Positions 8,758 to 49,357 of a DNA stretch of 64,000 nucleotides are shown here, in pieces. A program made the translations under genes and the position numbers. The notes under the pieces were generated by a model that did not search any database, was not told the DNA's origin, and saw nothing but the letters and a program-made list of their open reading frames with translations. The stretch comes from Minisyncoccia bacterium (lineage in GTDB: Bacteria; Patescibacteriota; Minisyncoccia; Phycocordibacterales; Zambryskibacteraceae). The first letter of the stretch is position 1; the number at the start of each line of letters is the position of its first letter. Location: NCBI GenBank assembly GCA_041742965.1, contig JBGTNQ010000010.1, forward strand, positions 38,079-102,078, read 5' to 3'.

Positions 8758-10647
8758 CTAAGACAAAAGGCTTTCGGGGTCTATTTTCACTGATATTGCA
8801 GGGGAAAGACCTTTTAATTTTTCTAAGAGATTCGTATCAGGCCAAGAAGCGGACTCAAGTCTAAAGAGAATATTTATCACCGCATTTCCTCGTCTGCTCA
8901 AATTTTTGCTTTCAAATGGGGCAGGGTTCCATTCCTTGAAATATTCCAAGAGTCTTTCTGTTTCTTTTTCCACAACACTACGCTTTCCTTCTACACTCAG
9001 TTTTATAAACAAAGAGAAAGGAGGGTATTTAAATTTTTTCCTCTCCTCAATTTCTTGTCGGTAAAAATCTATTAGATTTCCGTTTAAAGCATTATTAAAA
9101 AGTGTCTCGTCTCCGTTGCGTGTCTGGATGAGAAAGATCTTCCCGGCTTTGGCGCGCATAGATAGAAGTAGATAAAATATTTTTTCATTAATACGAAAAT
9201 CAGGAACCATAAATAATGCATCCATAGATGCCACGGCTACATTTTCAACTGGCTTCGAAAGGTGAAGCAGAGCCATCTCTGTGCCGACCAATATACTTCC
9301 AGGGGTGTTTTCAAATTTTTTCATAATATCTGAAGCCCTTTTTTCTGTTGAGGCGCTTTCTTTGTCCAACCGAAAGACTTTGGCTTCTGGGAAAAGTTTT
9401 TTTATTTCTTTTTCTACGAGTTCTATGCCGATACCTAGGGTTTCAAGTTTCCAACTATCACAGTGGGTACACCTCTCTGATGTGCTTCTCTCTTCGCCAC
9501 ATTTGTTACAGGAAAAAATATTTTCATCTTTTCTAGCAAATAAAGTTACTGGGGCTCCACACTGTTTACACACCACCACTTGTCCGCAATCTCCACACAC
9601 AGTTACAGGGGCGAGGCCTTTTCTACCACAAAAAATAAAAAGGTTTTCATTTTCTTCTTTTGTTTTATCTATCAAGGCTTCTAGTTCACGGGATATTACT
9701 CTGAACTCTTCGGTAAATAGACCACGAGGAAGTTTCATATCAACCAGAAGATTTCTACTCGAAGAAAGCATGCGAAGTTTAAGGGGAAAAAATTCTGCAT
9801 ATTCCTCCGTCTGCTCTTTATAGAGAGTCTCAACTGAAAGCATTAGGTCGCCCATAATGAGTTTGACGCCCATAGCGCGGGCAAAATTTCTGACGAACAC
9901 TCGCATATCGATATAGGGTCTTGTTTGGGTTCTATATGATCTTGAATTTTCTCTATCCAAAACTATACTTCCCAAGTCACCACGGGCTACTGACAAAAAT
10001 GATGGTGTGCCTATGATGAGGATGGGGTGTCCTTCCTCAGATATTAGACGCAGAGATTCAGTAAAGTCCTTTTTTGAAAGACCGCTATGCAATACACAGC
10101 TGTATTGCTCTATGCCTTTTTCCAAAGTATTTTTGGTCCTACGGATATCTTCGGCTGTTGGTAGGCAAAAGAAAACGGATGAATTTTTGGCGAATTCTCC
10201 GCGTATAAAACTTTTGTAATGAGCGAAGCGTTCGATGTCAACATCTTGTATTACTAAAAATTCTTTTTTTGTTTTTTTGTCACCCTCTTCCGGTTGATGT
10301 GATACTAGCTTTGCATTTTCTAAAACGAGTTTAGGTATGATGGTCTGCAATACAGCGCCCGTAGAAGAGGCGTATATTTCCGCTGTTTCAAGTGCTGATT
10401 TGAGCAAAGCAGAAGATAGAAAATGTTTATTTTTTATTGAGCCGATTTTTTTTAATGCATACGCAGAAGACTTTATTTCGGATTTCGAGAGAGTAACTTC
10501 TTGCTCTTCTATCACAATAGCGTGGGCTGTTTTTTTACGAAGGGGGATAGAGACCAAAGAGCCCAAGGGAATACCATCAGCTCCAAAGTATGAGAGGGTT
10601 TCCTTTGATATTCCTTTGGCTATAGGTATTACTTTATAGAGTTTCAT
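8758..10647 (-). CDS. priA: Primosomal protein N' (PriA)-like protein with degenerate helicase motifs
   Basis: PriA-like N-terminal domain, core helicase region (LHSGLS..., IIGTPSF, PRYxxRxxA-like) and C4 zinc ribbon (CGDCG...CKQCG...CNKCG...CTHCD). I find no Walker A GSGKT, and DEEH is replaced by DREN. Confidence 0.6.
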   Translation of the reverse strand: MKLYKVIPIAKGISKETLSYFGADGIPLGSLVSIPLRKKTAHAIVIEEQEVTLSKSEIKSSAYALKKIGSIKNKHFLSSALLKSALETAEIYASSTGAVLQTIIPKLVLENAKLVSHQPEEGDKKTKKEFLVIQDVDIERFAHYKSFIRGEFAKNSSVFFCLPTAEDIRRTKNTLEKGIEQYSCVLHSGLSKKDFTESLRLISEEGHPILIIGTPSFLSVARGDLGSIVLDRENSRSYRTQTRPYIDMRVFVRNFARAMGVKLIMGDLMLSVETLYKEQTEEYAEFFPLKLRMLSSSRNLLVDMKLPRGLFTEEFRVISRELEALIDKTKEENENLFIFCGRKGLAPVTVCGDCGQVVVCKQCGAPVTLFARKDENIFSCNKCGEERSTSERCTHCDSWKLETLGIGIELVEKEIKKLFPEAKVFRLDKESASTEKRASDIMKKFENTPGSILVGTEMALLHLSKPVENVAVASMDALFMVPDFRINEKIFYLLLSMRAKAGKIFLIQTRNGDETLFNNALNGNLIDFYRQEIEERKKFKYPPFSLFIKLSVEGKRSVVEKETERLLEYFKEWNPAPFESKNLSRRGNAVINILFRLESASWPDTNLLEKLKGLSPAISVKIDPESLLS

Positions 10648-10790: not shown

Positions 10791-11804
10791 ATGTCTCTAT
10801 TTTCTAAAAAACTCGGTATTGATTTGGGAACTACAAGTGTCTTGGTCTTTGTGCCTGGGAGGGGGATCGTTCTGAATGAACCCTCAGTTGTGGCTATATC
10901 AGAGGAAGATAATAGGATATTGGCAATAGGTATTGATGCAAAAGAGATGATAGGTAAAACTCCAGAGTCTATTGTGGCATATCGCCCGATGAAAGATGGG
11001 GTTATCGCTGACTATCGTGTTACAGAGGCAATGCTTAGGTATTACATAGGCAAAGCCCTTGGTAAGTGGAGTATATTTAAGCCAGAAGTTTTAATATCCG
11101 TACCCGCTGGAGTTACTTCAACAGAAAGAAGGGCTGTGGTAGAGGCGGCGATGAAAGCAGGGGCCAAAAATGCTTATGTAGTGAAGGAGCCTATCTTGGC
11201 CGCTATTGGTGCTGGTATTCCGATTCACGAACCCATAGGCCATATGATAGTAGACATTGGTGGAGGAACCACTGATGTGGCGGTGATCTCTTTGGGCGGT
11301 ATCGTGTCATCTACTTCAGTTAAATGTGCTGGTAATCGTATTGATGCTGCTATTGCTGACTACATAAAGAAGACTTTTAATCTTGCTGTCGGCGACAAAA
11401 CTGCTGAAGAGATAAAAATAAAAATTGGTTCCGCCATTCCTTTGGACGAAGAGCTCTCTATGAATATAAAGGGGCGGGATTATGTTCTAGGTCTTCCTCG
11501 TTCCGTAGAAATAAAAACAAATGAAATCACTAAAGCTATAGGTAAGGAGCTTCGAGAAATGATTAAGGCCATAAAGGATGTTTTGCAAGAAACCCCACCA
11601 GAGCTTTCTTCAGACATTATAGACCGCGGGATTATTATGACTGGTGGTTCGTCTCAGCTTAGAAATTTACCAGAACTTGTTTTTCGTCGCACTGGAGTGA
11701 AGGCTGTTTTGGCAAAAGATGCCCTTTATTGTGTTGCTCGTGGTACTGGTATTGCTCTGGAACATTTGGATACATATAAGAAGAGTATAATTGCGAAAAG
11801 ATAA
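10791..11804 (+). CDS. mreB: Rod-shape determining protein MreB (paralog 1, stand-alone)
   Basis: LGIDLGTTSVLVFV...NEPSVVAI actin-like ATPase motifs. Start chosen at MSLFSKKLGIDLGT; the ORF track extends to 10728. Confidence 0.85.
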   Translation: MSLFSKKLGIDLGTTSVLVFVPGRGIVLNEPSVVAISEEDNRILAIGIDAKEMIGKTPESIVAYRPMKDGVIADYRVTEAMLRYYIGKALGKWSIFKPEVLISVPAGVTSTERRAVVEAAMKAGAKNAYVVKEPILAAIGAGIPIHEPIGHMIVDIGGGTTDVAVISLGGIVSSTSVKCAGNRIDAAIADYIKKTFNLAVGDKTAEEIKIKIGSAIPLDEELSMNIKGRDYVLGLPRSVEIKTNEITKAIGKELREMIKAIKDVLQETPPELSSDIIDRGIIMTGGSSQLRNLPELVFRRTGVKAVLAKDALYCVARGTGIALEHLDTYKKSIIAKR

Positions 11805-11829
11805 TTTCCGTGCTTCGCACGGTTCGATT

Positions 11830-11927
11830 AAAACTCCTTGTGAAAAACACACATATCCCGTTTCTACGGGATTGCTCCGCTCGCCCCAGAGTGCTGGGAC
11901 TGCGCGAGGTTTTTCACAAGGAGTTTT
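11830..11927. repeat. 98-bp element with 19-bp perfect terminal inverted repeats enclosing two internal hairpins (MITE-like or structured ncRNA)
   Basis: aaaactccttgtgaaaaac ... gtttttcacaaggagtttt. Internal cccgtttctacggg and cccagagtgctggg hairpins. GC-rich and non-coding. Confidence 0.4.
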
Positions 11928-12031
11928 GATGTTTTTGGGAAATGTTTTCTCAAGCCGTGTTTCGGGTGGTTTTATGTAAATGAAGGCCCCCACGCGACGC
12001 GTGAGCGGGCATTTTTATAGATTGCTCTAAT

Positions 12032-12066
12032 AAGCTATTAGCTATAAGCTATTAGCTATAAGCTAA
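12032..12066. repeat. Tandem 14-bp direct repeat (aagctattagctat x2.5) containing the AGCTATAAGCT promoter-like motif
   Basis: aagctattagctat aagctattagctat aagctaatcc immediately upstream of holB. Confidence 0.6.
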
Positions 12067-12072
12067 TCCAGC

Positions 12073-21818: not shown

Positions 21819-21890
21819 ATGGTCTTCTGTTTGTCACAGAAATATTTTTAATATAGTATTGCTGTGGAAACTCAAAACCCAGGGGGATCG

Positions 21891-22121
21891 ATGGGTAGCG
21901 ATAGCTGTTTTTCTTGCATTAGGTGTGGGGCCAGAACCCCCAAGCCCAATTCTCTGCGGTGTGTCGTATGTGAACCAAAGGCGCCTGAAATTCGGGACGG
22001 GGTGGACGGCCGGATCGCACAGTGTCCCAATTGTAGGCACGCAGTGTCTACAGATACATGCCTAATTTGTGGATACAACTCCAGCACCTATGATATGGAG
22101 AACGATCGGATAGGGAGTTGA
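21891..22121 (+). CDS. Hypothetical double zinc-ribbon protein (76 aa), GC-rich cassette-type gene
   Basis: Four CxxC pairs (CFSCIRC, CVVC, CPNC, CLIC). AGGGGGA ribosome-binding site 4 nt before ATG 21891. Terminator at 22144-22166. A half copy of the TGGAAACTCA palindrome core at 21866-21875. Confidence 0.45.
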   Translation: MGSDSCFSCIRCGARTPKPNSLRCVVCEPKAPEIRDGVDGRIAQCPNCRHAVSTDTCLICGYNSSTYDMENDRIGS

Positions 22122-24053: not shown

Positions 24054-25763
24054 ATGAAGTCAGAATCTTCCTTCAGGATAAGACTCCTTTCTTTTTTTAT
24101 ATTTTGTTTCGCTCTTTTTTTGGTGGTGAGGCTTTATGATTTACAGATAGTTTCTGCCGAAGTATATGCCAACAAAGCTGACCGACAGTATTTGCAATCA
24201 ACCTATCATTATTATGATAGAGGATCTATTTTCTTTCAGACAAAAGACGGTGAACCTGTATCAGCGGGTACACTAAAGACGGGCCTTATTGTGGCCGTGA
24301 ATCCTCAGGTAATTTCTAATCCAGAGCAGGTCTTTCAATCATTGAGCTCTGTCTTAGAACTTGATCGTGAAGATTTTTTTGTGAAAGCCACAAAGCCAAA
24401 TGATCCGTATGAAGAGATTGCTCGAAGGGTGCCTTTGGATAAAGCGGAGGTGATTGATGCTTTAAAAATTCCTGGGGTTGGTGTTTATAGAGAGAGATGG
24501 AGGTTTTATCCAGGGAACAATATGGCAGCACAGACAATCGGCTTCGTGGCTTATGATGAAGAAAATGAATTGGCTGGTAGATATGGACTCGAGCGATATT
24601 ATGATGGGGTCTTAAATAGAAACAATGACAGTGTTTATGTAAATTTTTTTGCTGAAATTTTCTCCAACATATCACAGACTCTCTCTGGTGACTTAGACAG
24701 AGAAGGGGATGTTATCACCTTCATAGAGCCCTCTGTTCAAGGTTTCTTAGAGCAGTCTCTTTTTAAAATGCATGAATCTTGGGATTCTGAATTTACTGGA
24801 GGGATAATAATGGACCCAATGACCGGTGCTATAGTGGCCATGGGCCTGGTGCCGTCTTTTGACCCAAATGATTTTAAAAACGAAGATGTATCAATTTTTT
24901 CTCACGACTTAGTGGAGAAAGTCTATGAGATGGGTTCTATCATAAAACCTCTCACTGTCGCCGCTGGTATTGATGCGGGGGCCATAACTCCGCAATCTAC
25001 ATATTATGATGCTGGTTTTATGACTCTCAATAACAAGACTTTTTCGAACTTTGATGGTAAGGCACGCGGACTAGTATCTATGCAAGAGGTTTTGAGTCAG
25101 TCATTGAATACTGGCGTAGCACATATTGTGCAACAAATGGGAAAGAAAAATTTTGCTGAATATATGTTTAATTTTGGCTTAGGGCAGGAGACCGGGATTG
25201 ATCTTCCAAATGAGACACATGGTTTGGTAGAAAACTTGAAAAGTCCTAGAGACATTGAATATGCCACCGCCTCATTCGGACAAGGTATTGCCCTCACTCC
25301 GATTCAAACCGTGAGAGCGCTGGCCGTGCTTGGGAATGGTGGCAAACTTATTAACCCGCATATTGCAGATCGTATTACCTATAAGACTTTGGGTTCAAAG
25401 AAAATAACTCCAGGTATTGATGTGCAAGTCTTAAAGAAAGAGACTTCTGAGGAGATTTCTAGAATGCTCGTGAAGGTGGTGGACGAAGCTCTTTTGGGGG
25501 GTACGGTTAAAATGGATAGGTTTAGTATTGCCGCGAAAACCGGTACTGCACAAATACCAAATCCAAGAGCTGGAGGCTATTATGATGATAGATTTTTACA
25601 TTCATTTTTTGGTTATTTTCCAGCCTTTAACCCCCGTTTTATTGTATTTTTATACTCAGTTAATCCAAGAGGGGCTAGATATGCGTCAGAGACACTCACG
25701 CATCCTTTCATGGATATTACGAAATTTCTGATAAACTATTATCAGATACCGCCGGATAGATAA
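24054..25763 (+). CDS. ftsI: Peptidoglycan D,D-transpeptidase FtsI (PBP3)
   Basis: N-terminal TM, SIIKPL (SxxK), SQS(LN) and KTGTAQ motifs. Confidence 0.85.
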   Translation: MKSESSFRIRLLSFFIFCFALFLVVRLYDLQIVSAEVYANKADRQYLQSTYHYYDRGSIFFQTKDGEPVSAGTLKTGLIVAVNPQVISNPEQVFQSLSSVLELDREDFFVKATKPNDPYEEIARRVPLDKAEVIDALKIPGVGVYRERWRFYPGNNMAAQTIGFVAYDEENELAGRYGLERYYDGVLNRNNDSVYVNFFAEIFSNISQTLSGDLDREGDVITFIEPSVQGFLEQSLFKMHESWDSEFTGGIIMDPMTGAIVAMGLVPSFDPNDFKNEDVSIFSHDLVEKVYEMGSIIKPLTVAAGIDAGAITPQSTYYDAGFMTLNNKTFSNFDGKARGLVSMQEVLSQSLNTGVAHIVQQMGKKNFAEYMFNFGLGQETGIDLPNETHGLVENLKSPRDIEYATASFGQGIALTPIQTVRALAVLGNGGKLINPHIADRITYKTLGSKKITPGIDVQVLKKETSEEISRMLVKVVDEALLGGTVKMDRFSIAAKTGTAQIPNPRAGGYYDDRFLHSFFGYFPAFNPRFIVFLYSVNPRGARYASETLTHPFMDITKFLINYYQIPPDR

Positions 25764-25845
25764 GGGGTGGGGAAGCTGTTAGCTTATAGCTGTTAGGGGG
25801 AAAATAAGGAAAACGAAAGAAGAATGGGGAATAAATAAATAAAAA
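25764..25845. repeat. ~80-bp intergenic composite element, copy 1 (AGCTGTTAGCTTATAGCT palindromic core plus purine-rich tail)
   Basis: ggggaagctgttagcttatagctgttagggggaaaataaggaaaacgaaagaagaatggggaataaa. Near-identical copy at 27156-27240. Confidence 0.6.
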
Positions 25846-25850: not shown

Positions 25851-27155
25851 ATGAAAACAATATTGAAGAAAATCGTTGTCTCCATACTGACTTGGGAGGC
25901 AAAGCTCGTATTAAAGAAATACAAACCCAAGATTATTGCAATCACAGGAAGTGTGGGAAAGACTTCTTCAAAAGATGTTATTTTTTCAGTTTTGTCACAC
26001 TTCTTTTTTGTCCGTAAAAGTGAAAAAAGTTTTAATAGTGAGATAGGTGTACCTCTGACAATACTTGGTTGTCCAAATGGCTGGAATGACCCACTCATCT
26101 GGCTCAAGAATATTTTTGAGGGGCTAGCTTTGATCATTGTGCCAAACAAATATCCAAAATGGCTCGTATTGGAAGTTGGAGCAGATGCTCCAGGAGACAT
26201 CGCCTCTATTACTAGTTGGATTAAGCCAGATATCGCTGTAGTCACTAGACTTTCAAAGGTGCCTGTTCATGTTGAATTTTTCCCTTCTCCTGAGAGTTTA
26301 TTTCAAGAGAAGGGCTATCTGGTTTCTGCGTTGAAGAGGGATGGGGTTTTGATATTAAATGCAGATGATGAGGATGTATTAGCATTCAGCTCTTTATCAG
26401 AAGGTAGTAAAACTATTTTGTTTGGTATGGGCTCTGAAGCGGATGTTTTGGGTTCAAAGTACGAGATTACTTATGAGAATCACGACGGTAAGAAAGAGCC
26501 TGTGGGAATTAATTTTGATATAGAATATTCTGGTTTGGTAGAAAAAGCAGAAATTCGCGGGGGTTTGGGCATTCAGCAGGTTTATCCGGCACTATCTGCT
26601 GTGGCTGTTGCCATGTCGCTAGAATTGCCTTTTGACAAGGTGGTGGCGAGCGTAAAGACACATTTACCGTCTCGTGGCAGGATGAGGATTTTGAGGGGCA
26701 TTAAGAATAGCTTGATTATTGATGATTCTTACAATTCCTCACCTGTGGCTCTTTTTGAGGCATTAAATACACTCAAACACATAAATGTTTCTGGTCGTAG
26801 GATTGCTGTGGTTGGGGATATGTTGGAGCTCGGTACATATTCAAGTGATGAGCACAAAAAAGCAGGAGCACAGGTGGGGGAATTCGCAGATCTTTTGTTT
26901 ACTGTTGGAATACGCGCCAGAGGAGTCGCGGAGGGCGCTTTGAATGCAGGTATGGATGAGTCAAAGATATTTCAATACGAAGACTCTCGTGAAGCGGGCA
27001 AGGATTTAGAAATTATGATAAAGGAAGGAGATACGATACTAGTGAAAGGTTCTCAAGGTGTGCGAATGGAAAAAGTAGTTGAGGAGATTTTGGCCACACC
27101 TTTGCAGAAGGACAAACTTTTAGTGAGACAAGACGCGGAGTGGAAGCGAAGATAG
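25851..27155 (+). CDS. murF: UDP-N-acetylmuramoyl-tripeptide--D-alanyl-D-alanine ligase
   Basis: Mur ligase P-loop ITGSVGKTS and MurF-type IDDSYNSSP motif. Follows ftsI. Confidence 0.75.
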   Translation: MKTILKKIVVSILTWEAKLVLKKYKPKIIAITGSVGKTSSKDVIFSVLSHFFFVRKSEKSFNSEIGVPLTILGCPNGWNDPLIWLKNIFEGLALIIVPNKYPKWLVLEVGADAPGDIASITSWIKPDIAVVTRLSKVPVHVEFFPSPESLFQEKGYLVSALKRDGVLILNADDEDVLAFSSLSEGSKTILFGMGSEADVLGSKYEITYENHDGKKEPVGINFDIEYSGLVEKAEIRGGLGIQQVYPALSAVAVAMSLELPFDKVVASVKTHLPSRGRMRILRGIKNSLIIDDSYNSSPVALFEALNTLKHINVSGRRIAVVGDMLELGTYSSDEHKKAGAQVGEFADLLFTVGIRARGVAEGALNAGMDESKIFQYEDSREAGKDLEIMIKEGDTILVKGSQGVRMEKVVEEILATPLQKDKLLVRQDAEWKRR

Positions 27156-27240
27156 GGGGCAGGGAAGCTGTTAGCTTATAGCTTAGGGGGAAAAGAAGAA
27201 AAACGAAAGAAGAAAGAAGAATGGGGAATAAAAACCCTTT
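27156..27240. repeat. ~80-bp intergenic composite element, copy 2
   Basis: gggcagggaagctgttagcttatagcttagggggaaaagaagaaaaacgaaagaagaaagaagaatggggaataaaaaccc. Confidence 0.6.
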
Positions 27241-27246
27241 GCAAAA

Positions 27247-27279
27247 CCTCCACTTGGAAACCGAGTTTCCAAGTGGGGG
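27247..27279. repeat. Palindromic hairpin element, copy A (core cacttggaaa-ccgag-tttccaagtg)
   Basis: 14-bp arms with a 5-nt centre, 44 nt upstream of tRNA-Glu. Same core as copies at 28626 and 31323. Confidence 0.65.
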
Positions 27280-27322
27280 AAGCTTGAAGCTCGAAGCTAA
27301 AAGCTGTAAGCTTCTTGTTTAA

Positions 27323-27394
27323 GGCCTCATCGTCTATCGGTTAGGACACAGCCTTCTCAAGGCTGGAAGCGGGGTTCGATTCCCCGTGAGGTCA
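27323..27394 (+). tRNA. tRNA-Glu (anticodon CUC)
   Basis: Acceptor GGCCTCA/TGAGGTC, anticodon stem CAGCC/GGCTG with loop TTCTCAA, T-arm CGGGG-TTCGATT-CCCCG. Confidence 0.8.
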
Positions 27395-27540
27395 TGGTAA
27401 CAAAAAACTCCGTCTTGTGTGGGGTTTTTGTTTTTTATATCTTTACATAGGGTGACTCTATGTAATTGGTAATTTGACATTTAAATCAAATTGTTATAAA
27501 AAGTAAGGAGAAATGTACTAAAACAAGAGAGGAATCAATA

Positions 27541-27900
27541 ATGTCAACGAAAAACCACAGATTAGGCGGTAAGTTTGGAGGATCTCACACTACAGTGATT
27601 CCCGTGGCTGGTTTAGTGTCTGACATTGCTGTTAGCCTGCCAGAAGTAAATAAGGTCGTCCTTGGATTTATCAAGGCCGGCTTGTCGTCAGTTGGTGGTC
27701 AACGAAGGGTTAAAATTACTCGTCGAGACGGCAATATTTTTCTCGCAATTCGCGATAATACCTCTCACCAAGAGATCACTGTGTATACAAGTGACCTCCA
27801 GAGGACTGCGCTGTCGATAGCAAGAAGTGCACGAAGTATTGGTCTCCATGTATCCTTCGGTGAAAGTGGCTCCACACCGCGCGCTGTTCAACACTCATAA
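27541..27900 (+). CDS. Hypothetical protein (119 aa), GC-rich island gene
   Basis: GAGG ribosome-binding site upstream. High GC. First gene downstream of tRNA-Glu. Confidence 0.45.
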   Translation: MSTKNHRLGGKFGGSHTTVIPVAGLVSDIAVSLPEVNKVVLGFIKAGLSSVGGQRRVKITRRDGNIFLAIRDNTSHQEITVYTSDLQRTALSIARSARSIGLHVSFGESGSTPRAVQHS

Positions 27901-27918
27901 CCTAAGGGAGAAGAAAAA

Positions 27919-28254
27919 GTGTCAAAGACCAGAAAAGGCAAGCCTGCTCGCTCTCGGTTCTACTTCTTGTTTCCTCGGGATGAGGAGACTGAGGTCCGTT
28001 TTGTTGAGATGGGGTTTCGGCCCCACCAGAAGCTCCGAAGGTATGGTGCGAGGGTGACGGAAGTCATCGTCTACCAGAGCAAGGAAATGCTCTCTTTGTC
28101 GGAGATGGTGGCTCTCAAAAAGAGTCCGCACCTCAATTTCTTGGTTTTGACATGTCTTCGGGGAGATTTTGCCCTAGAGTATGTCAAGCCGAGGCGTCTG
28201 GAGTCGCCGTATCTTGGCAGAGTCAAGATGAGGGTGACCTTCGTTTCGGTCTAG
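27919..28254 (+). CDS. Hypothetical protein (111 aa, GTG start), GC-rich island gene
   Basis: AAGGGAG 8 nt before GTG. Strong terminator 28271-28310 after the stop. Confidence 0.45.
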   Translation: MSKTRKGKPARSRFYFLFPRDEETEVRFVEMGFRPHQKLRRYGARVTEVIVYQSKEMLSLSEMVALKKSPHLNFLVLTCLRGDFALEYVKPRRLESPYLGRVKMRVTFVSV

Positions 28255-28270
28255 TCTTCGAGGGAACAGG

Positions 28271-28310
28271 ATCACCCAGACCGCCAAAGGCGGTCTGGGT
28301 GATTTTTCTT
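28271..28310 (+). terminator. Rho-independent terminator (15-bp stem atcacccagaccgcc/ggcggtctgggtgat)
   Basis: Perfect stem with an aaa loop, then ttttctt. Confidence 0.7.
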
Positions 28311-28344
28311 AACTAGATTTTGATTTCTGGTATAATGGATTATT

Positions 28345-28617
28345 ATGGCAACACAAACAGCAATAGACGTTTTAAAAAAAGAAATAGATAATAAAAAAAG
28401 AGAGCTTGAAAGAGCTAAACAAAAAGTCGGAGACAAAGAAAGGGACGCACAGAAGGAAAAAAGAGAATTAGAAAAAGCTCAAGAAAAAGTTACAGAAGCC
28501 GAGAAAGATATTGAGAAATTAAAAGGCGTAGTGTCAGATATAGAAGCAGAGATTGAAAGGATTCACAATGAAATGGATAGGATGATGGGGGAGTATAATA
28601 GAGAAAAGAAGTCTTAA
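28345..28617 (+). CDS. Coiled-coil protein (90 aa), AT-rich
   Basis: Uninterrupted heptad-like K/E-rich sequence. Composition like the native genome. Confidence 0.45.
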   Translation: MATQTAIDVLKKEIDNKKRELERAKQKVGDKERDAQKEKRELEKAQEKVTEAEKDIEKLKGVVSDIEAEIERIHNEMDRMMGEYNREKKS

Positions 28618-28625
28618 AGAAATAA

Positions 28626-28662
28626 CCCCACTACTTGGAAACTCAGTTTCCAAGTAGTGGGG
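28626..28662. repeat. Palindromic hairpin element, copy B (ccccactacttggaaa-ctcag-tttccaagtagtgggg)
   Basis: 16-bp perfect arms. The ORF-track ORF 28635 (METQFPS...) begins by translating this palindrome and is rejected at its N-terminus. Confidence 0.65.
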
Positions 28663-28733
28663 TTTGCTTGTGGACAAGCCTGAATCTTCTTTGTACTATC
28701 AAGAAGGATTTGCACCTATTTAGGGAGGGACTC

Positions 28734-28949
28734 ATGTATTACGACAGAGCTGATCCGAGGGTTATTGAGAGGGGAAGGGCCAAGCTTGCCGAAGGGAGTG
28801 TGGCTCGAAAGTGCTTTGAGCACATTCTTGAGAAGGGCTTACCATCTCAGAGTGCAAGGGAGTGGTTCGAAGCACTCAAGGACCAGAATTTCTCCGACTG
28901 CATTTTCGAGGTGATTCTATCTCACACCAACAACCTGATCAATGCCTAG
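28734..28949 (+). CDS. Hypothetical protein (71 aa), GC-rich island gene
   Basis: GGGAGGGA ribosome-binding site 3 nt before ATG 28734. Downstream of palindrome copy B. Confidence 0.4.
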   Translation: MYYDRADPRVIERGRAKLAEGSVARKCFEHILEKGLPSQSAREWFEALKDQNFSDCIFEVILSHTNNLINA

Positions 28950-29070
28950 CTCCGCTCAGGATGTACCCGACCTAAGAAGATCTGCCAAATCGGTAGGTCT
29001 TCTTTGTTTACAGCGACTGTTTTAAATAGTATAAAGAAAAAGGAAAGAACTTTCGCTACTCGGAGGTAAG

Positions 29071-29457
29071 ATGCGTAAAAGGAAAGTTGGAGGTCAGCCG
29101 TACAGTATTTCTAGTTACAGGGTTTTGTATCTCGAGATATTGGACCGAGACACCGTGTTCCCTGTGAGCTTTCCAAACTTGGAAACTGAGGTGGTGGTGT
29201 CACGCGGAAGGTATTGTGAGGAAATTCGAGTAAACATTATTACTCTTGCTGATGCCGAGTTGATACTGGCTAGCCGGAAGACTAAGCTCTTGAAAGACTA
29301 TCGCATTTGGGTTCAGGAAGGGAATTCTCCTCTCGCGATTTGGGATCCTCAAACCATCAGGGAAAGCAAGAAGCTCGAGAAGATTCGGGCCATGAGGGAG
29401 AGGGCGTTGGCTATTCAAGAGAGGCAGAAAAGACAGAACCTCTTGAGGAATAAGTAG
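29071..29457 (+). CDS. Hypothetical protein (128 aa), GC-rich island gene
   Basis: GGAGG 5 nt before ATG. Imperfect terminator hairpin at 29480-29530. Confidence 0.45.
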   Translation: MRKRKVGGQPYSISSYRVLYLEILDRDTVFPVSFPNLETEVVVSRGRYCEEIRVNIITLADAELILASRKTKLLKDYRIWVQEGNSPLAIWDPQTIRESKKLEKIRAMRERALAIQERQKRQNLLRNK

Positions 29458-29540
29458 TAGTGGAGTTTGGTTTTCTGGGTAAGGCCCCGCGCTAGTCCAT
29501 TTCAAACGGCTAGTGCGGGGCATTTTGCTATAATAAAAAT

Positions 29541-29810
29541 ATGAAAAGAAGAAGTTTGTTCACAGAACGTGTGTATAAAGTAGTGAAATCGATTCCTAAA
29601 GGAGAGACTTTGTCGTATGGCGGGGTAGCAAAAAGGGCAGGTAACCCCGGGGCTTCACGTGCCGTAGGAACTTTGATGAAAAACAATTTTGATAAAACAG
29701 TTCCGTGCCACAGAGTAATAAAGTCTGATGGTAGTTTAGGCAATTATAATCGCTCCGGTGGGACAGAGGCAAAGAGGAGAATGCTTTTGAAGGAGGGATG
29801 GAGGGGGTAG
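29541..29810 (+). CDS. ogt: Methylated-DNA--protein-cysteine methyltransferase, stand-alone DNA-binding/active-site domain
   Basis: GETLSYGGVAKRAGNPGASRAVGTLMKNN...PCHRVIKSDGSLGNY contains the PCHRV active-site motif. No N-terminal domain. Confidence 0.8.
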   Translation: MKRRSLFTERVYKVVKSIPKGETLSYGGVAKRAGNPGASRAVGTLMKNNFDKTVPCHRVIKSDGSLGNYNRSGGTEAKRRMLLKEGWRG

Positions 29811-29870
29811 GGAGAATGACGAATAAGGAATAATGAATGAGGAAGAGGAGGGGAAAACGAATAAGAAACA

Positions 29871-29914
29871 TTTCAACATTCTCAAGAATGTTGAAATGTT
29901 TCTTAGATATGTTT
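29871..29914. terminator. Bidirectional terminator hairpin, second member of the 19-bp-stem hairpin family
   Basis: aagaaacatttcaacattc-tcaa-gaatgttgaaatgtttctt between convergent genes. Differs from the copy at 196-241 by paired compensatory changes. Confidence 0.6.
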
Positions 29915-30094
29915 TTTTATAAGAGCTCTTAATTCTGCGACATGTTCTTCTTTGTCAGCTTCCATCTTTTTCCAAAAGGCGACAGACTCCTCGTCTCCTT
30001 CGGCGTCTTTTATATATTCGTCTTTGATACGCCAAAGACTTTTGTTTTCCTCTGTTAATTGAAGCATTAAGTTGTATAGATTGTTGTGGAGCAT
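29903..30094 (-). CDS. Hypothetical small acidic helical protein (63 aa)
   Basis: AT-rich ORF convergent with ogt. Its stop lies in the shared hairpin. Confidence 0.35.
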   Translation of the reverse strand: MLHNNLYNLMLQLTEENKSLWRIKDEYIKDAEGDEESVAFWKKMEADKEEHVAELRALIKKHI

Positions 30095-30222
30095 TTTGTA
30101 AAGAATAGGGAAAAACGAATGATGAATAATGAGGAAACAGGAACAGATTCATTCTAATATAAAAATGGAATAAAAAAACACGAGGCGACCGAAGTCGCCT
30201 CGTTTCTACTGACCGCTACTTT

Positions 30223-30495
30223 CTAGTTGCCGTAGTAACGATCGTGCCAGCTTCCCCGTACCACCTTGGGGGCTGGCTCCTGCGCCCCCTCTCTCTTGGG
30301 AGGATCGCTTCTGCCCTTACGCCCCAGAGCCTTGCCGGCTCGGGACATGAACTCCGCGAGTCCCTCGCCCTCCACCGAGTGCTCTCGGTGGAGGTTCTTC
30401 GCCGCAACGAAGAACCTATCCTTCTGCCCGTGGAGCCTTTTGAGCTCCGCGGAGAACGCTTCACGAAGGCGCTCGTTTTCAGCCCTCTCCTTCAC
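30223..30495 (-). CDS. Hypothetical protein (90 aa, GTG start), GC-rich island gene
   Basis: AGGAGG 5 nt before GTG. Terminator acgaggcgac/gtcgcctcgt plus T-run at 30174-30212. Confidence 0.45.
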   Translation of the reverse strand: MKERAENERLREAFSAELKRLHGQKDRFFVAAKNLHREHSVEGEGLAEFMSRAGKALGRKGRSDPPKREGAQEPAPKVVRGSWHDRYYGN

Positions 30496-30680
30496 AAATG
30501 CCTCCTAGGCGGGGTGGTTGGTGCCAAACAGCAGTTCTACACTTAATACTATCATAAAAAAGACAAAAAGTCAATCAAATGTGGATAAGTTTAAAATATG
30601 CCTTAGATAGGCACTTTTTTAGTATAAAAAGTAATACGCGCAGGCTCCCTTAAAGGGTAAGCCCGCGCGTATGGGTGCAA

Positions 30681-31238
30681 TCAAGAGCTGATGATCTTTG
30701 CAGGGAAGACCGCTCCTCCCGGCCAGATTCTGCCCACCCTGTCCAAGTCCATGAATCGCTTGAACCTCTTCTGGATAGACAAATTGGGGTTACTGGAGTA
30801 GTTCGTGAGGAATTGGTGAACTACTGGGACGAGGGTGGCGTCTGGACAAGACTGATTGGGTTCAAACGGAACGCCCGGGAAGACGAAGAGTTGTCCCAAG
30901 TTCCAACTTCTCTCATCTGTGAGGAAGTCCACAGATTCTTGGAAGGAGAGATACTCGAGACCGTCCGCTTTGAGTATGTCCTCAATTCGTCCTCGCCGGA
31001 CATCTTCTCTGAGCGACACCAGCACCACCCCAATTTTTCGGAGTTCGTCTTTACTCGGAGCCTTATCCAGTTTAGGATAGTCAAAGTGAGAGTCGTTGAT
31101 GCGTGAGTCGAAGTGGTGGCACGGCATTGCACTGAATGCCTGTCGAAGACTCATGCGTCCTCCAACCTTCACATCTCTGAGGATGGCCACCTGCTGTTCT
31201 GCTGAGTGCAGAGTGAACTCATCGCTTTCTCGTCCCAT
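30681..31238 (-). CDS. Hypothetical protein (185 aa), GC-rich island gene
   Basis: GAGG ribosome-binding site before ATG 31238. Imperfect terminator at 30631-30675 followed by a T-run on the minus strand. Confidence 0.45.
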   Translation of the reverse strand: MGRESDEFTLHSAEQQVAILRDVKVGGRMSLRQAFSAMPCHHFDSRINDSHFDYPKLDKAPSKDELRKIGVVLVSLREDVRRGRIEDILKADGLEYLSFQESVDFLTDERSWNLGQLFVFPGVPFEPNQSCPDATLVPVVHQFLTNYSSNPNLSIQKRFKRFMDLDRVGRIWPGGAVFPAKIISS

Positions 31239-31322
31239 TTTTTGCCTCGTTTCTAGTTGCGGTTTAGGTACAAAGATTCTCTACAAATACAATCATTTTT
31301 TACAAAAAAGTCAATGAAACAA

Positions 31323-31357
31323 GCCCATACTTGGAAACTCAGTTTCCAAGTATGGGC
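31323..31357. repeat. Palindromic hairpin element, copy C (gcccatacttggaaa-ctcag-tttccaagtatgggc)
   Basis: 15-bp perfect arms at the distal edge of the GC-rich island. The ORF-track ORF 31331 (METQFPS...) is its translation artefact. Confidence 0.65.
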
Positions 31358-31377
31358 TGCCTGTATTTAATTTGCTT

Positions 31378-31830
31378 TTATTGGAAGAGAGCTTCTACCA
31401 CTGTTTTTACATCAGCTCCGTCGGCCTTTCCTTTCAGTTCTTTCATAACTACTCCCATTAGTTGTCCTAATTTGCTTTTGTCCGCATTGAGTTCTATTTT
31501 TTTTGCTTCTGCGACAGTTCGTATTTCATCCAAACTCATCATTTGAGGTAAATATGTCTGCAGAATAGCTAGTTCGGCTTCCTCGCTTTCTGCGAGGTCT
31601 TTTCTTCCTCCGGCCGTGAATTGCTCGATAGAATCTTTTCTCTGCTTCACTCCTCGTCGAATAACATCCAAGGCTTCTTCGTCAGAAAGCTCTTCATTCG
31701 GTTTTCTTTTCTTTGCGACTAGTTCGTTTGTAAAAGCTGATAGAAGACCGCGGAGGGTATTGAGGCGAACTGTTTCCTTGGCGAGCATGGCTTCTTTTAT
31801 CTGATCTCTGATTTGAATATGTAGTGTCAT
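31378..31830 (-). CDS. yqeY: GatB/YqeY domain protein
   Basis: MTLHIQIRDQIKEAMLAKETVRLNTLRGLL... is the typical YqeY N-terminus. Start at ATG 31830; the upstream part of the ORF-track ORF is not coding. Confidence 0.75.
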   Translation of the reverse strand: MTLHIQIRDQIKEAMLAKETVRLNTLRGLLSAFTNELVAKKRKPNEELSDEEALDVIRRGVKQRKDSIEQFTAGGRKDLAESEEAELAILQTYLPQMMSLDEIRTVAEAKKIELNADKSKLGQLMGVVMKELKGKADGADVKTVVEALFQ

Positions 31831-31981
31831 AGGAACATTATACAGAAAAAGGCACGAATGATGAATATGTGTAGCTGTCAGATTACTGCTGTTAGGTGGA
31901 AAAGAATGACGAATAAGTAGTGAGGAATGATGAATAATGATGGGGAATAAGGAAAAATGAAATTCTTGGTATAATAGAGGT

Positions 31982-34400: not shown

Positions 34401-34453
34401 GATGTGGGGGAATGAATGAGGAATAAGGAATGACAAATAATGAAAAGAAAAAA

Positions 34454-35836: not shown

Positions 35837-35934
35837 GTGGGAATTTTAACACAGCGGGGTAGTTATATGAAAAAGGTAAAAATATGGACAAAGTGTGGGT
35901 AATTTGGGGACACGTACAGCGGAGGAGCTAACAG

Positions 35935-37323
35935 CTATAAGCTAACCCTTGGTCCTTCAGGGAGGTCTTCTACTGCATATCCTAGGGATTTGAGTTCGTC
36001 ACGGAGTTTGTCTGATGTTTTCCAGTCTTTGTTTTTTCTAGCGTCTTCTCTTTTGTTTATGATGTTTTGAATATTTTCTGGGAGATTAGTAGTTGAAACA
36101 TCTTCTAATTTATTAGCACTGCCCTCTATTCCAAGGCCGAGTAATTTATCAAATTCACCAATAGTTGTTTTCTTATCTTCTACCGATACTCGGTCATCTT
36201 TTATAAGTTCCCAAAGAAGGGCGATTGATTTTGGTGTATCGAGGTCATCTTCCATTGCTTCAATAAGATTCTTTTTGTATCCCTCATTAATTTTTCCGCC
36301 GTCTGGGAGAGTTTTCCAAAATTTAATAATTTTTAAATAAGCTGTTTGCGCAGATTCTAGTGCTTCAAAAGAAAAGTTAATTGGGCTTGAGTATCTTGCC
36401 TGAAGGAGCCAGTAGCGATAGGCGAGTGGAAGAAACTTTTTTTCAGATAAGGTCTTTAAGGTTATGAAGTTTCCTTCCGACTTTGCCATCTTGTCATTTT
36501 CTACATTCACAAAAGCATTGTGTAGCCAATAATTTACAAATTGGCATTCACAAGCATTTTCAGATTGAGCTATTTCATTGTTGTGGTGTATGGGAGCGAG
36601 GTCTATTCCTCCTGTGTGAATATCAAAGTGGTTGCCCAAGTATTTTCTGGCCATAGCTGAACACTCTATGTGCCAGCCGGGGAAACCCTTGCCCCAAGGA
36701 CTTCCAAATCCAAGCTCAGGATTTATTTTCCAGAGAGCAAAATCACGCGAATTTTTCTTTTCAGAGTTGATTCCAATACGGGAGTGCTCATCTGTTTCAT
36801 CCGAATTTCCACCAAGCTTTCCGTAATGCGGGTCTTTCCCTGTATCAAAATAAATGCCATCGCTTGTTTTGTATGCGAAACCTTTTTCTTCCAAGGTTTT
36901 TATGAGGTTTATATCTTCAGCAATGTGTTCGCTGGCTTTTGGAAGAGAGTGCGGGGCAAGGATATTCATTTCCACTAAATCTTTTTTGAAAGACTCGGTG
37001 TAAAAGTCGGCCAACTCTTTCATGGCTTCTAAAGTTAAAGGTTTCCCTTCTCTTTTGAGACCTTTGGTCATCTTGTCTTCTCCTTCATCTTCACCTCCGG
37101 ACAGGTGTCCAATATCAGTGATGTTTATCACCTGTTTTACAGAATAGCCGGTGTATTCAAAAGTTCGGCGCAATATATCTGCAGTAGTCCAAGAGCGGAG
37201 GTTACCAATATGCACATAGTCATAGACAGTAGGTCCGCAGTGGTACATACCCACCGCTCCATTTTGGATTGGTTCAAATTTTTCCTTTTTGCCTGTTGGG
37301 GTGTTAGTAAGAAAGAGTGACAT
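35935..37323 (-). CDS. cysS: Cysteine--tRNA ligase
   Basis: HIGN (HIGH) and KMAKS (KMSKS) motifs and a Zn-binding Cys pattern. Confidence 0.9.
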   Translation of the reverse strand: MSLFLTNTPTGKKEKFEPIQNGAVGMYHCGPTVYDYVHIGNLRSWTTADILRRTFEYTGYSVKQVINITDIGHLSGGEDEGEDKMTKGLKREGKPLTLEAMKELADFYTESFKKDLVEMNILAPHSLPKASEHIAEDINLIKTLEEKGFAYKTSDGIYFDTGKDPHYGKLGGNSDETDEHSRIGINSEKKNSRDFALWKINPELGFGSPWGKGFPGWHIECSAMARKYLGNHFDIHTGGIDLAPIHHNNEIAQSENACECQFVNYWLHNAFVNVENDKMAKSEGNFITLKTLSEKKFLPLAYRYWLLQARYSSPINFSFEALESAQTAYLKIIKFWKTLPDGGKINEGYKKNLIEAMEDDLDTPKSIALLWELIKDDRVSVEDKKTTIGEFDKLLGLGIEGSANKLEDVSTTNLPENIQNIINKREDARKNKDWKTSDKLRDELKSLGYAVEDLPEGPRVSL

Positions 37324-37406
37324 TTATGTGGGGAAGAATGACGAATAAGGAATAAGGAATAAAGATAAAATCGCTATTTGTTATTCACTACTCATCATTC
37401 TTAATT

Positions 37407-46290: not shown

Positions 46291-47065
46291 GTTCTATTTT
46301 ACTTGCATTTTGGGTCAAAGTGTGCTATATAATAATTGTGTGAAGTTCGTTGAAATACTAATTTAGCCCCAAGTTTTGCTCCGCAAAACTTGGGTCGGAA
46401 CCTCTTTTCTTGTTTCTGGATTTGCCAAAAGCTAGTCCACAAACAAGAGGGGGGTAGCCTGATTATGGGCTGTCTGGTTCTTGTCCGAACCAGATAACGC
46501 TTCTCTCAATGTAATCCGTATGAAAATTTTACGAGTCATTGGGCTGGGGCTGTTCATAATCATGCTTCAGTTCCTTGTTCCGCGAATCTTCGCTGGATTC
46601 GAGAACACCCTCCTCGTGTTCTTTGATACACTCGAAAGTGTCCTTGGTTCTGCCAAGGATATCTCTCAAGCTGGCGCTTTTACACCTCTTTCGAGGTGAT
46701 AAATCGCAACCCCGTTGCCCACAAGGTGACGGGGTTCGTGTTTTTGGATTTTTTGTCTAAACCAATGATCAAGTGGACAAAAAGACTAAAAAATGGGATA
46801 TTTTAGTTTCGATAAATATGGCTTAATAGGGCCATACAAATGACTATTTTCACATAAAAAGCATTGACAATTAGATTGAAAGGTGCTAAGATTAATACAA
46901 CTCAGTTAATTGCTGAGTTTTCGTTTTTAAAGGGCTAATATTCTTTAAATTCAATTTCCGGACCTGACAGAATTAGAAGTAACCCAAATAAGTATTTTAA
47001 ATTTAAGCACAGTTGGTCTTCTCGCAGTAGTTTCAGGCTTTAATGTCTTTGGAACACCGGCTGAA

Positions 47066-48616: not shown

Positions 48617-48762
48617 AGTTTTTGATTTAATTCGTATTAACAGAACTTTATTGTAGCTTAAAAAATAGTGATGGGGTAGGTATTGCTTTTTATTTTTTAA
48701 TGTTGTATTATCTATATTGGAAGTTCGTTTTGTTGTACGTCTACCACTCTTACCATGGAGAT

Positions 48763-49215
48763 ATTATGAGTAGTGAGAACACCATCTGTGAGCGTGGCAC
48801 CCTGTCTCTCCTCCCTCGGCCATCTGGAATGTTGCAAAGGCACCACGATGTGTTGAAGTTTTGTTTTATCGGTGAGACACTTTACGCCGTTCCTTTTCAT
48901 GGTTCGGTAGTGGTGTATCATCACGAGGCGCTTGAAGAAGTCGTGAGTGTGGGCTTCAGCAAGACTGCGGATGTTGTGGTGTCGACTGATACTCTGGCAA
49001 TCATCCAGGATTCATCAAGGAGGCTCCTTAGGGCGTTCGATCGAACTCGGCCCCATGAAGGGTCAGAGTCTGAAGGAAGTCATGTTACTGATTCCGAGCA
49101 CCCACTTGGTGACAAGGCGGTAGGCCGAGCTATCGAGCGCCCATCAGGACTACTGACTGACTCTTTTCGGGAAACCCAGCTGGGGCGTACCATTGGGATT
49201 GGTATGATGCAATAG
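48763..49215 (+). CDS. Hypothetical protein (150 aa), GC-rich cassette-type gene
   Basis: GGAG 6 nt before ATG 48763. GC-rich. Hairpin ggcccc...ggggcc at 49240-49268. Confidence 0.4.
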   Translation: MMSSENTICERGTLSLLPRPSGMLQRHHDVLKFCFIGETLYAVPFHGSVVVYHHEALEEVVSVGFSKTADVVVSTDTLAIIQDSSRRLLRAFDRTRPHEGSESEGSHVTDSEHPLGDKAVGRAIERPSGLLTDSFRETQLGRTIGIGMMQ

Positions 49216-49310: not shown

Positions 49311-49357
49311 TTATAATAAATTTATCAAATAAATTAGTTACTAACAGAAAAACTTTT

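Follow-up and report, generated by a model that had tools for sequence, protein, structure and literature searches.

We analyzed a 64,000-nucleotide stretch of DNA (hereafter, the window) from a Minisyncoccia bacterium (GenBank assembly GCA_041742965.1, contig JBGTNQ010000010.1), in which the interval between murF and yqeY contains a tRNA-Glu gene, small open reading frames (ORFs) designated A to F, most of them GC-rich, and three copies of a long hairpin-forming palindrome. The first-pass annotation of this DNA interpreted the interval as a horizontally acquired island or cassette array placed next to the tRNA gene, with the palindromes as boundary elements. Our results indicate that the underlying observation is sound, whereas the island or cassette-array interpretation is only partly supported. 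The explanation that we consider probable, if far from assured, is that an inherited cluster of fast-evolving, GC-rich genes is overlaid by an unrelated mobile palindrome resembling repetitive extragenic palindromic (REP) elements.

Under this explanation, the stretch from B to F would be a lineage-specific cluster inherited by descent rather than recently transferred, adjoining yqeY in an apparently rearrangement-prone interval of a chromosome of Paceibacteria, which belong to the Candidate Phyla Radiation (CPR). The small genes of the cluster each appear to carry their own transcription signals. The rate of evolution of four of them (B, D, E, and F) would exceed that of their neighbors several-fold, with active maintenance of GC-rich codon usage in all lineages, and ORF A and the C-containing block would be the sole additions private to the window genome. 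The three hairpins would be recent insertions of a 21-23-nt REP-like palindrome, presumably moved as a single-stranded hairpin by a Y1 (HUH) enzyme resembling the REP-associated tyrosine transposases (RAYTs), and would have landed just 3' of murF, the coiled-coil gene cc, and yqeY. The classic signature of an island, comprising a tRNA gene, GC contrast, repeats, and unmatched ORFs, thus appears to mislead in this case.

The GC content of the window is 40.0%, and its MurF is closest to the MurF proteins of metagenome-assembled genomes of Paceibacteria/Parcubacteria (CPR), with 80% identity to the nearest homolog, from a JGI metagenome, and 73% to that of the nearest species representative. The region is located between a mraZ-mraW-ftsL-ftsI-murF block and a yqeY-rmuC-L21-recR-dnaB block. 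The ORFs listed in the first-pass annotation are all present at their coordinates, and its tRNA-Glu call was confirmed by two programs. The features are as follows (strand in parentheses, with a dot for none; GC3, GC content at third codon positions; core and loop refer to the palindrome described below).

25851-27155 (+): murF, conserved left flank; Pfam Mur_ligase_M/C; 80% identity to the sister MurF
27247-27279 (.): palindrome copy 1; core 27252-27274, loop CGA; 15-bp hairpin, -26.9 kcal/mol
27280-27318 (+): five tandem AAGCTNN heptamers directly 5' of the tRNA gene, read from the sequence
27323-27394 (+): tRNA-Glu, anticodon CTC; called by both ARAGORN and Rfam
27541-27900 (+): ORF A, 119 aa, DUF2103; GC3 0.40; private among the loci examined
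27919-28254 (+): ORF B, 111 aa; GC3 0.66; sister homolog B2, 36% identity, E = 3e-12
28345-28617 (+): coiled-coil gene cc, 90 aa, AT-rich; GC3 0.28; 47% and 34% identity in the sisters
28624-28664 (.): palindrome copy 2; core 28633-28655, loop TCA; 19-bp hairpin, -33.4 kcal/mol, z = -8.1
28734-28949 (+): ORF C, 71 aa; GC3 0.61; no homolog found
29071-29457 (+): ORF D, 128 aa; GC3 0.57; sister homolog D2, 42% identity, E = 2e-21
29170-29190 (+): palindrome remnant inside D, TTTCCAA-ACTTGGAAAC-TGAG, translated FPNLETE
29541-29810 (+): stand-alone gene for the MGMT C-terminal domain (ogt-like, PCHR motif); GC3 0.42; 80% and 60% identity in the sisters
29862-29905 (.): palindrome of a second family (21-bp arms) separating ogt from the acidic ORF; acts as a terminator in both directions
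29903-30094 (-): small acidic ORF, 63 aa; GC3 0.39; 89% identity in the sister
30223-30495 (-): ORF E, 90 aa; GC3 0.76; same slot GC3-rich in the sisters
30681-31238 (-): ORF F, 185 aa; GC3 0.60; tiny family, next to yqeY
31322-31358 (.): palindrome copy 3; core 31329-31351, loop TCA; 17-bp hairpin
31378-31830 (-): yqeY, conserved right flank; yqeY-rmuC-L21-recR-dnaB block

The gene cluster and its composition

With MurF as the anchor, 80 relatives were fetched, and a sister genome (contigs L206-L209) was identified through the best homolog of F (44% identity). Its relatedness to the window genome is evident from the amino acid identity of DnaB (92%), RmuC (93%), and YqeY (86%), and one of its contigs shares its metagenome of origin (Ga0163144) with the contig bearing the 80%-identical MurF. 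In the sister, the gene order is yqeY-F2-E2-acid2-ogt2-D2-cc2-B2, with identities to the window proteins of 45% for F, 89% for the acidic ORF, 80% for Ogt, 42% for D, 47% for the coiled-coil protein, and 36% for B. A third genome (L210) shows the order yqeY-F3 (31%)-E3-ogt3 (60%)-D3-cc3 (34%). The presence of homologs in the same order in the sisters implies that the B-F cluster predates the split of these lineages. The proposal of a horizontally acquired island is contradicted accordingly for B-F, with B, cc, D, ogt, the acidic ORF, and F all syntenic beside yqeY in the sisters.

The sequences of the cluster proteins have diverged extensively: B, D, and F are 36-45% identical to their sister homologs, compared with 66-94% across 16 housekeeping pairs. 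Though much larger, the divergences of these fast genes track the housekeeping, that is, species topology. The E slot is occupied by proteins of 120 aa (E2) and 107 aa (E3), with marginal similarity to E (E = 0.05). The cluster genes lie on both strands, each with an AT-rich promoter-like region and a terminator, as judged from reading of the sequence and a terminator scan; the region upstream of F aligns across the three genomes and includes, by reading, a TTGACT promoter-like box.

Only ORF A and a block of ~385 nt (~28618-29005), which encompasses palindrome 2, gene C, and its terminator and is missing from the sisters between cc2 and D2, are private to the window genome. In the comparison with relatives suggested at first pass, the sisters lack the palindromes and carry the same genes at the same yqeY locus, with A and the C block varying; where an empty site had been envisaged, only A and the C block are absent.

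Beyond the sisters, the interval between murF and yqeY is far less stable. In the sister genome, murF is no longer linked to yqeY, and is followed by genes for type I restriction-modification (R-M), Z1, RhuM, and Fic proteins. About 19 of the 80 relatives retain murF and yqeY within 10 kb of each other, with gaps of 0.8 to ~7 kb, the contents of which vary among Paceibacteria and often include defense or mobile genes as well as other GC3-rich small ORFs; near-empty gaps are found only in distant relatives (L017 and L035). The usual resident of the interval in many relatives, on either strand, is tRNA-Glu(CTC). The varied gap contents show that the interval is variable over long evolutionary distances, whereas the sisters keep the B-F cluster. 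This variability arises from rearrangement and gain around the cluster, and the murF-downstream side is where variable genes concentrate. The DNA 3' of murF in the closest relatives (L203, 11734-20666; L205, 11392-21299; L008, 11468-20172; L004, 13979-16730) encodes type I R-M, Z1, RhuM, and Fic proteins; a Toprim primase-like protein together with N6_N4 methylase and ResIII; and, by reading of the sequence, a large helicase-like ORF with an HNH-like one behind it.

The GC3 of window genes of at least 100 aa averages 0.376 (standard deviation, 0.087). B (0.66), C (0.61), D (0.57), E (0.76), and F (0.60) are distinguishable from the other window genes in both GC3 and codon choice, and in each of them, the codon positions rank GC3 > GC1 > GC2, whereas cc (0.28), ogt (0.42), and the acidic ORF (0.39), interspersed among them, have host-like values. 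The claim of six GC-rich ORFs thus stands for these five (GC3 0.57-0.76) but fails for ORF A (0.40), which is no outlier at synonymous sites and is GC-rich at codon positions 1 and 2 alone. In the GC3-rich genes, both C and G are elevated at the third position (GAG, 67% vs. 37%; AAG, 73% vs. 32%; TTC, 74% vs. 29%), and the arginine content is doubled. By reading, a purine-rich GGAG-type Shine-Dalgarno sequence is present 5-10 nt upstream of every listed ORF, in agreement with the AGGAGG-type ribosome-binding sites noted earlier, and 16 terminator-like hairpins were observed compared with 5.3 expected.

The compositional contrast is shared with the sisters, where the F, E, D, and B slots have a GC3 of 0.51-0.57 (B2, 0.57), compared with ~0.34 for the host genomes, and the interleaved genes are not GC3-rich, reproducing the alternation seen in the window. 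GC3 correlates between genomes (rho = 0.77, P = 4e-5; 21 orthologous pairs), and the GC3-rich genes are the most diverged of these pairs. At conserved residues of housekeeping genes, four-fold sites are 27-45% identical between the window and the sister, that is, near saturation, so that a foreign ancestral composition would have decayed under the mutation bias of the genome. Because the GC3 excess has been kept in every lineage despite this saturation, the contrast appears to be maintained rather than to represent the fading signature of a transfer; conserved as it is in the sisters, the atypical composition is no evidence of recent transfer. More broadly, composition conserved gene by gene in the face of saturated synonymous sites means that transfer calls based on codon usage can be wrong in CPR bacteria. 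A GC3-rich ORF is located directly upstream of ogt, on the same strand, in five genomes, including the more distant L006 and L036; in alignments, the ORFs in this slot are too weakly similar to claim homology beyond the D-D2 pair.

We infer that the GC richness of B, D, E, and F is upheld by a force specific to these genes. The candidate causes are recombination-associated GC-biased conversion in hypervariable genes, which we favor, and selection on codons or mRNA. That recombination enriches bacterial genes in GC3 through GC-biased gene conversion (gBGC) is a hypothesis of Lassalle et al. 2015 (PMC4450053). What the present case has in common with it is GC3 raised gene by gene in an AT-biased genome and confined to hypervariable genes. 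What sets the window apart is an extreme contrast (+0.2 to +0.4 GC3) that switches from one gene to the next inside 4 kb and is shared across species; gBGC is a candidate cause only. Relative to shuffled sequences, the mRNAs of B (z = -3.2 to -3.9) and E (z = -3.4 to -4.1) are strongly folded. We rejected mRNA structure as the cause of the GC3 excess given that D fails in this respect and that the window-wide correlation is weak (rho = -0.32).

Other small GC3-rich ORFs (0.51-0.56) occur in the window at 5566-5910 (-), 8381-8668 (-), 21864-22121 (+), and 48700-49215 (+). One of the four adjoins tRNA-Asn, and one, upstream of mraZ, contains four CxxC pairs (zinc ribbon-like); the sister genome likewise has GC3-rich ORFs upstream of mraZ. 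The phenomenon of GC3-rich small genes may be genome-wide.

The claim that the cargo of the interval matches no known family holds for B-F, which are Arg-rich proteins without a match to any such family, but requires correction for ORF A, a DUF2103 protein (42.3 bits vs. a gathering threshold of 22.4; E = 7e-11; residues 10-87), and F, D, and B do belong to small families. Scans of all proteins of the interval against Pfam, PHROGs, PADLOC, and NCBIfam yielded only DUF2103 (A), MGMT (ogt), and coiled-coil noise, and no counterpart of ORF A or ORF C was found in any sequence set searched. Exact-sequence look-ups of F and yqeY returned the source contig only, and in a word-indexed homology search, F and D produced self-matches only and looked like orphans; an exhaustive HMMER search then recovered the F family (best E = 1e-35). 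This family consists of four small homologs (P0123-P0126; 174-182 aa) among 1.84 billion representatives, plus one marginal match to a 905-aa protein (E = 1e-4), and all three members with readable flanking genes adjoin yqeY. F contains 12 invariant columns, including one cysteine (C131); the family profile had no match in the Protein Data Bank (PDB) or Pfam. For D and B, homology was detected at the protein level in the sister genome (E = 2e-21 and 3e-12, respectively). Hidden Markov models (HMMs) of F, D, B, and E recovered no further members among all ORFs of 200 loci, GC-rich relatives included; tblastn with A-F against the 80 MurF-anchored relatives and 120 palindrome loci gave nothing; and viral contigs contain nothing related to F, D, or B. 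Modeled by AlphaFold from single sequences, F and D reached mean confidence scores (pLDDT) of 39 and 53, respectively, too poor for a fold search; the only part confidently predicted is a basic C-terminal helix of D (residues 93-126). Gathering and permissive Rfam scans identified no RNA family in the GC-rich segments. Codon-position periodicity together with protein-level homologs in the sisters indicates that, judged by sequence, F, D, and B are real proteins.

The palindrome and a RAYT-like transposase

The core of the palindrome, ACTTGGAAAC-N3-GTTTCCAAGT, is found in the window at 27252-27274, 28633-28655, and 31329-31351, in agreement with the three copies of one family reported at first pass, and no fourth full core was detected in the 64 kb even with 3 mismatches (0 expected; 100 shuffles). 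The outer stems differ between the copies yet are complementary, so that hairpins of 15-19 bp form (-27 to -33 kcal/mol; z = -3.9 to -8.1). In addition, the left arm, ACTTGGAAAC, occurs as an exact 10-mer at 29177, inside D (0.07 expected per window), where the remnant forms no stable hairpin (z = -0.2). The three copies each follow a host-like gene, at a distance from its stop codon of 92 nt (murF), 8 nt (cc), and 20 nt (yqeY). Copy 1, located 44 nt before tRNA-Glu, is upstream of the tRNA gene rather than at its 3' end and has a T tract on its minus-strand side only; copy 2 is called terminator-like for the minus strand alone, the cc strand offering just a weak TTTGCTTGT; and copy 3 is called terminator-like on the yqeY strand. 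Comparison with the sisters places copy 2 at one edge of the private ~385-nt C block and copy 3 in a ~45-nt segment missing from the yqeY-F spacer of both sisters, and there is no equivalent of copy 1 downstream of the sister murF. The palindrome was not found in viral contigs, the 80 relatives, or ~37 kb of the sister genome. The copies are thus those of a widespread REP-like element absent from the orthologous sites of the sisters, which runs against their proposed role as cassette boundaries; at most, the window copies can serve as terminators or mRNA-end hairpins, and they do not bound cassettes.

A second palindrome family (AAACATTYCAACATTCT...) is present in the window between convergent genes at 29862-29905 and 197-240. 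The sister contig L206 carries, at 9373-9415, the orthologous copy of the palindrome between ogt and the acidic ORF, which is identical to the window copy at 197-240.

A search with the 18-base core of the palindrome retrieved at least 120 metagenome contigs, with 146 copies among the matches listed. Many of the contigs among these matches come from 0.1-0.2-um groundwater fractions, and 86% of the matches listed also bear a flanking A...T that was not required by the search pattern. This conservation of the flanks indicates that the copies are homologous rather than chance matches. Several contigs contain three to four copies spaced 200-500 nt apart.

In 10 contigs with a close homolog (L086, L095, L113, L115, L119, L121, L149, L150, L161, and L183), the copies flank, and usually also lie within, a gene encoding a protein of 213-242 aa. 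In 9 of the 10, copies precede the start codon by 15-35 nt and also lie at the stop codon or beyond it; L121 has the downstream copy only. Three of these genes were scanned, and the product of each passes the Pfam threshold for Y1_Tnp (IS200-like; 25-26 bits vs. a cutoff of 23); the HxH motif and the catalytic tyrosine are invariant. The sole NCBIfam match is to the REP-associated tyrosine transposase (NF047646), at 22-33 bits compared with a cutoff of 80, and a profile search of the PDB returned ISDra2 TnpA at an E value of 0.13 only. By these sequence comparisons, the 213-242-aa protein is a putative divergent relative of RAYTs. Thus, the proposed search for the palindrome elsewhere and for a recombinase near it did uncover further copies, in metagenome contigs, but the enzyme alongside is a Y1 transposase, located elsewhere than in the window.

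The palindromes inside the RAYT-like genes occupy two recurrent sites, after the motifs IGSIYE.SF.K and YVNLN..VH. In L121, a different palindrome (translated LGCGAPKL) is present at both sites, and L071 (Moranbacteria) has a RAYT-like gene without an internal palindrome. The transposase-internal copies suggest self-targeting or autoregulation.

Many copies are also embedded in other genes. Of the 146 copies listed, 107 (73%) fall in open frames of at least 100 codons, compared with 87% for random positions, and 52% are well inside frames, compared with 73% for random positions. Copies in frame are translated as LGNxVSK, LETxFPS, or TWKxxFQV. When compared with solved structures, UvrB contains a clean 7-residue insertion, the GyrA C-terminal domain contains a 12-residue insertion derived from two adjacent copies, and a loop of LepA is replaced; further intragenic copies are found in DnaX-like and TopA-like ORFs. 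By reading, the palindrome arms lack a stop codon in any frame, so the palindrome can settle in frame inside genes. Adjacent or nested copies occur in L123, L131, L156, L157, and L162, some of them with reverse-complementary loops, as in GAAAC-GGG-GTTTCC-ACTTGGAAAC-CCC-GTTTCCAAGT, a pattern hinting that one copy inserted into another or that copies form head-to-head dimers like those of REP arrays.

Combinations of REPs with a RAYT transposase (REPtrons) are known from other phyla and were surveyed by Di Nocera et al. 2013 (PMC3733652), who also reported REPs within genes for replication and repair; Rickettsia palindromic elements (RPEs) are mentioned in the same work. The CPR element resembles REPtrons in that a short palindrome of 21-33 nt is present in many copies, on both sides of a single Y1 HUH transposase gene, with extragenic copies just 3' of genes that look like terminators and intragenic copies, here in UvrB, GyrA, and the DnaX-like and TopA-like ORFs. 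Unlike REPs, it has perfect 10-bp arms, a free 3-nt loop, and no consistent GTAG/CGTC tag; the flanks read A...T, then weakly C/G, with GTAG confined to copy 2. Most classical REPs lie outside genes, whereas 52-73% of the copies of this palindrome are in ORFs, although the three full copies of the window are extragenic. The CPR transposase is longer (213-242 aa) than RAYTs and scores far below the NCBIfam RAYT cutoff, and unlike in known REPtrons, its gene holds copies at two recurrent sites within its own coding sequence. The host range, CPR bacteria, also differs from that of described REPtrons. In the literature searched, we found neither an earlier account of this palindrome nor one of RAYTs in CPR. 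The palindrome would add a REP/transposase system to a group of bacteria in which mobile DNA is poorly known.

RPEs offer a further parallel. These elements, as Ogata et al. are said to have described in 2000, are selfish palindromic DNA reportedly inserted in frame in unrelated protein genes and tolerated as peptide loops; they are ~100-150 bp long and have no known dedicated transposase. In-frame palindromic insertion in many unrelated genes is common to both. Unlike an RPE, the CPR element is 21-23 nt in size, adds ~7-8 residues, and is associated with a Y1 transposase gene.

Competing explanations

The proposal that an inherited GC-rich cluster is overlaid by a mobile palindrome has to be weighed against the island interpretation, in which an island or cassette array from a GC-rich donor was inserted at tRNA-Glu, with the palindromes acting as recombination sites or boundaries. 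The compositional contrast on which it builds is real, the murF-yqeY interval varies in distant relatives, where it often holds defense or mobile genes, A and C are private, palindrome 2 edges the C block that is missing in the sister, and all copies of the palindrome in the 64 kb are in these 4 kb. Nonetheless, we regard an island as quite unlikely. The sisters share the order of B, cc, D, ogt, the acidic ORF, and F, genes more diverged than the flanks, and the GC3 excess persists despite saturated synonymous sites. Palindrome 1 is upstream of the tRNA gene and not at its 3' end. As noted at first pass, no integrase is visible: across ~20 kb around the region, Pfam assigns the called genes to housekeeping families or to none, with no integrase-type domain (tyrosine or serine recombinase) recorded. 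The tRNA and its 36-nt trailer have no exact repeat longer than 11 nt in the window and no 11-mer within the interval, and the last 30 nt of the tRNA gene have no match with up to 7 mismatches anywhere in the window; an att duplication of the tRNA was ruled out on the grounds that its 3' end is not repeated.

The cassette-array version of this interpretation fares no better. An integron array comprises an IntI integrase, attI, the Pc promoter, and promoterless cassettes in one orientation, each followed by an attC site, an imperfect palindrome of 57-141 nt with R''/L''-L'/R' boxes and extrahelical bases. An integron was rejected here, there being no integrase and the genes lying on both strands with their own promoter- and terminator-like signals, and attC sites likewise, the hairpins being perfect, with a conserved 23-nt core and no GTTRRRY/RYYYAAC boxes. 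The palindromes follow 3 of 11 genes, all three host-like, and elsewhere lie mostly inside unrelated housekeeping genes. What the locus shares with tRNA-linked islands and integron arrays is a tRNA neighbor, atypical composition, small unmatched genes, and repeated hairpins; it departs from them in the lack of an integrase and att duplication and in a gene order common to sister species and, with regard to integron cassettes in particular, in the two-strand arrangement with individual promoters and in hairpins without attC architecture that elsewhere are mainly intragenic.

Alternatively, the positions of the GC-rich genes might be ancestral, with the genes themselves repeatedly replaced by diverged homologs from an external, GC-richer pool, either mobile elements or GC-rich Paceibacteria, that entered by recombination in the conserved AT-rich neighbors. 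Replacement would yield both the high divergence and the persistent GC richness and accords with the alternation of slowly evolving AT-rich genes (acidic ORF, 89%; ogt, 80%) and very diverged GC-rich ones; moreover, GC-rich Paceibacteria do exist (L035, 57% GC; L061, 52%), and E, E2, and E3, as well as D and D3, are not recognizably similar. We nevertheless deem this scenario improbable. The F family is tiny, and every member with readable flanks occupies the yqeY-adjacent slot of an AT-rich genome; the divergences of F track the species topology; the HMMs of F, D, B, and E match nothing in 200 other loci, GC-rich relatives among them; and nothing was found in viral contigs. A still simpler possibility, that the palindromes are ordinary terminators alike by chance or local duplication and the GC-rich ORFs spurious frames in noncoding or RNA-coding DNA, draws on the terminator-like calls for copies 2 and 3, the location of all three copies just 3' of genes, the better-than-shuffled folding of the B and E regions, and the long open frames that GC-rich DNA naturally contains, with three other ORFs overlapping E. 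Against it, the same 23-nt core recurs in at least 120 unrelated contigs, flanking a Y1 gene and inside housekeeping ORFs, no Rfam family is present in the GC-rich segments, and the ORFs combine codon-position periodicity with protein homologs in the sisters; it strikes us as highly implausible.

Several observations weigh against our preferred account of an inherited cluster with a superimposed palindrome. The 64-kb window contains no RAYT-like gene, so the tie of the window copies to the transposase rests on other contigs, and we infer the mobility of the palindrome from its distribution. All window copies, the three full ones and the remnant, are within 4 kb, and this clustering, along with the abutment of palindrome 2 on the C block, leaves room for a link between the palindrome and gene gain. 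On the side of the cluster, E, D3, and E3 are orthologous by position only, the AlphaFold models of F and D are unusably poor, and the mRNA of D folds no better than shuffles, unlike those of B and E. The cause proposed for the maintained GC3 is a candidate only, and repeated replacement from an unsampled GC-rich pool is possible.

A more ambitious combination, which we advance tentatively and regard as possible but doubtful, joins two separable ideas, an active CPR palindrome with stop-free arms driven by a divergent RAYT-like Y1 enzyme and a gene-targeted process that keeps a few small, very fast genes GC3-rich through speciation in an AT-rich genome. In its first part, the palindrome would routinely colonize essential genes in frame and self-insert at two fixed sites of the transposase; if so, it might be viewed as a miniature, enzyme-linked counterpart of RPEs. 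In the second part, the gene-targeted process could consist of recombination or gene-conversion hot spots or other targeted diversification. Whichever its nature, some force appears to act on a few rapidly evolving genes. That UvrB, GyrA, and other core proteins can carry short hairpin DNA in frame has a bearing on annotation, on how CPR marker proteins are aligned, and on explanations of the tolerance of streamlined genomes toward selfish DNA.

Further repeats and folded segments in the window

Apart from the palindromes, purine-rich, approximately heptameric tracts of the GAATGAC GAATAAG GAATGAT type recur between genes of the window (8280-8335, 29802-29843, 30091-30132, 31892-31933, 34402-34443, and 37303-37365), and similar low-complexity heptamer tracts are found 3' of murF in the sister genome. 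A repeat of ~75 nt (88-91% identity) is located directly after the stop codons of ftsI and murF (25758-25832 and 27150-27222) and contains AGCT-heptamer motifs, with related tracts at 12033-12069 and 35926-35948.

In a window-wide control, extreme folding z-scores were obtained for three ORF-sized segments, 49229-49549 (-7.9), 11791-11979 (-6.3), and 46481-46699 (-4.2), none of which has a gathering-score match in Rfam. The second of these includes a 22-nt inverted repeat (11827-11848/11909-11930), and rather than being genes, all three may correspond to structured RNAs or hairpin elements.

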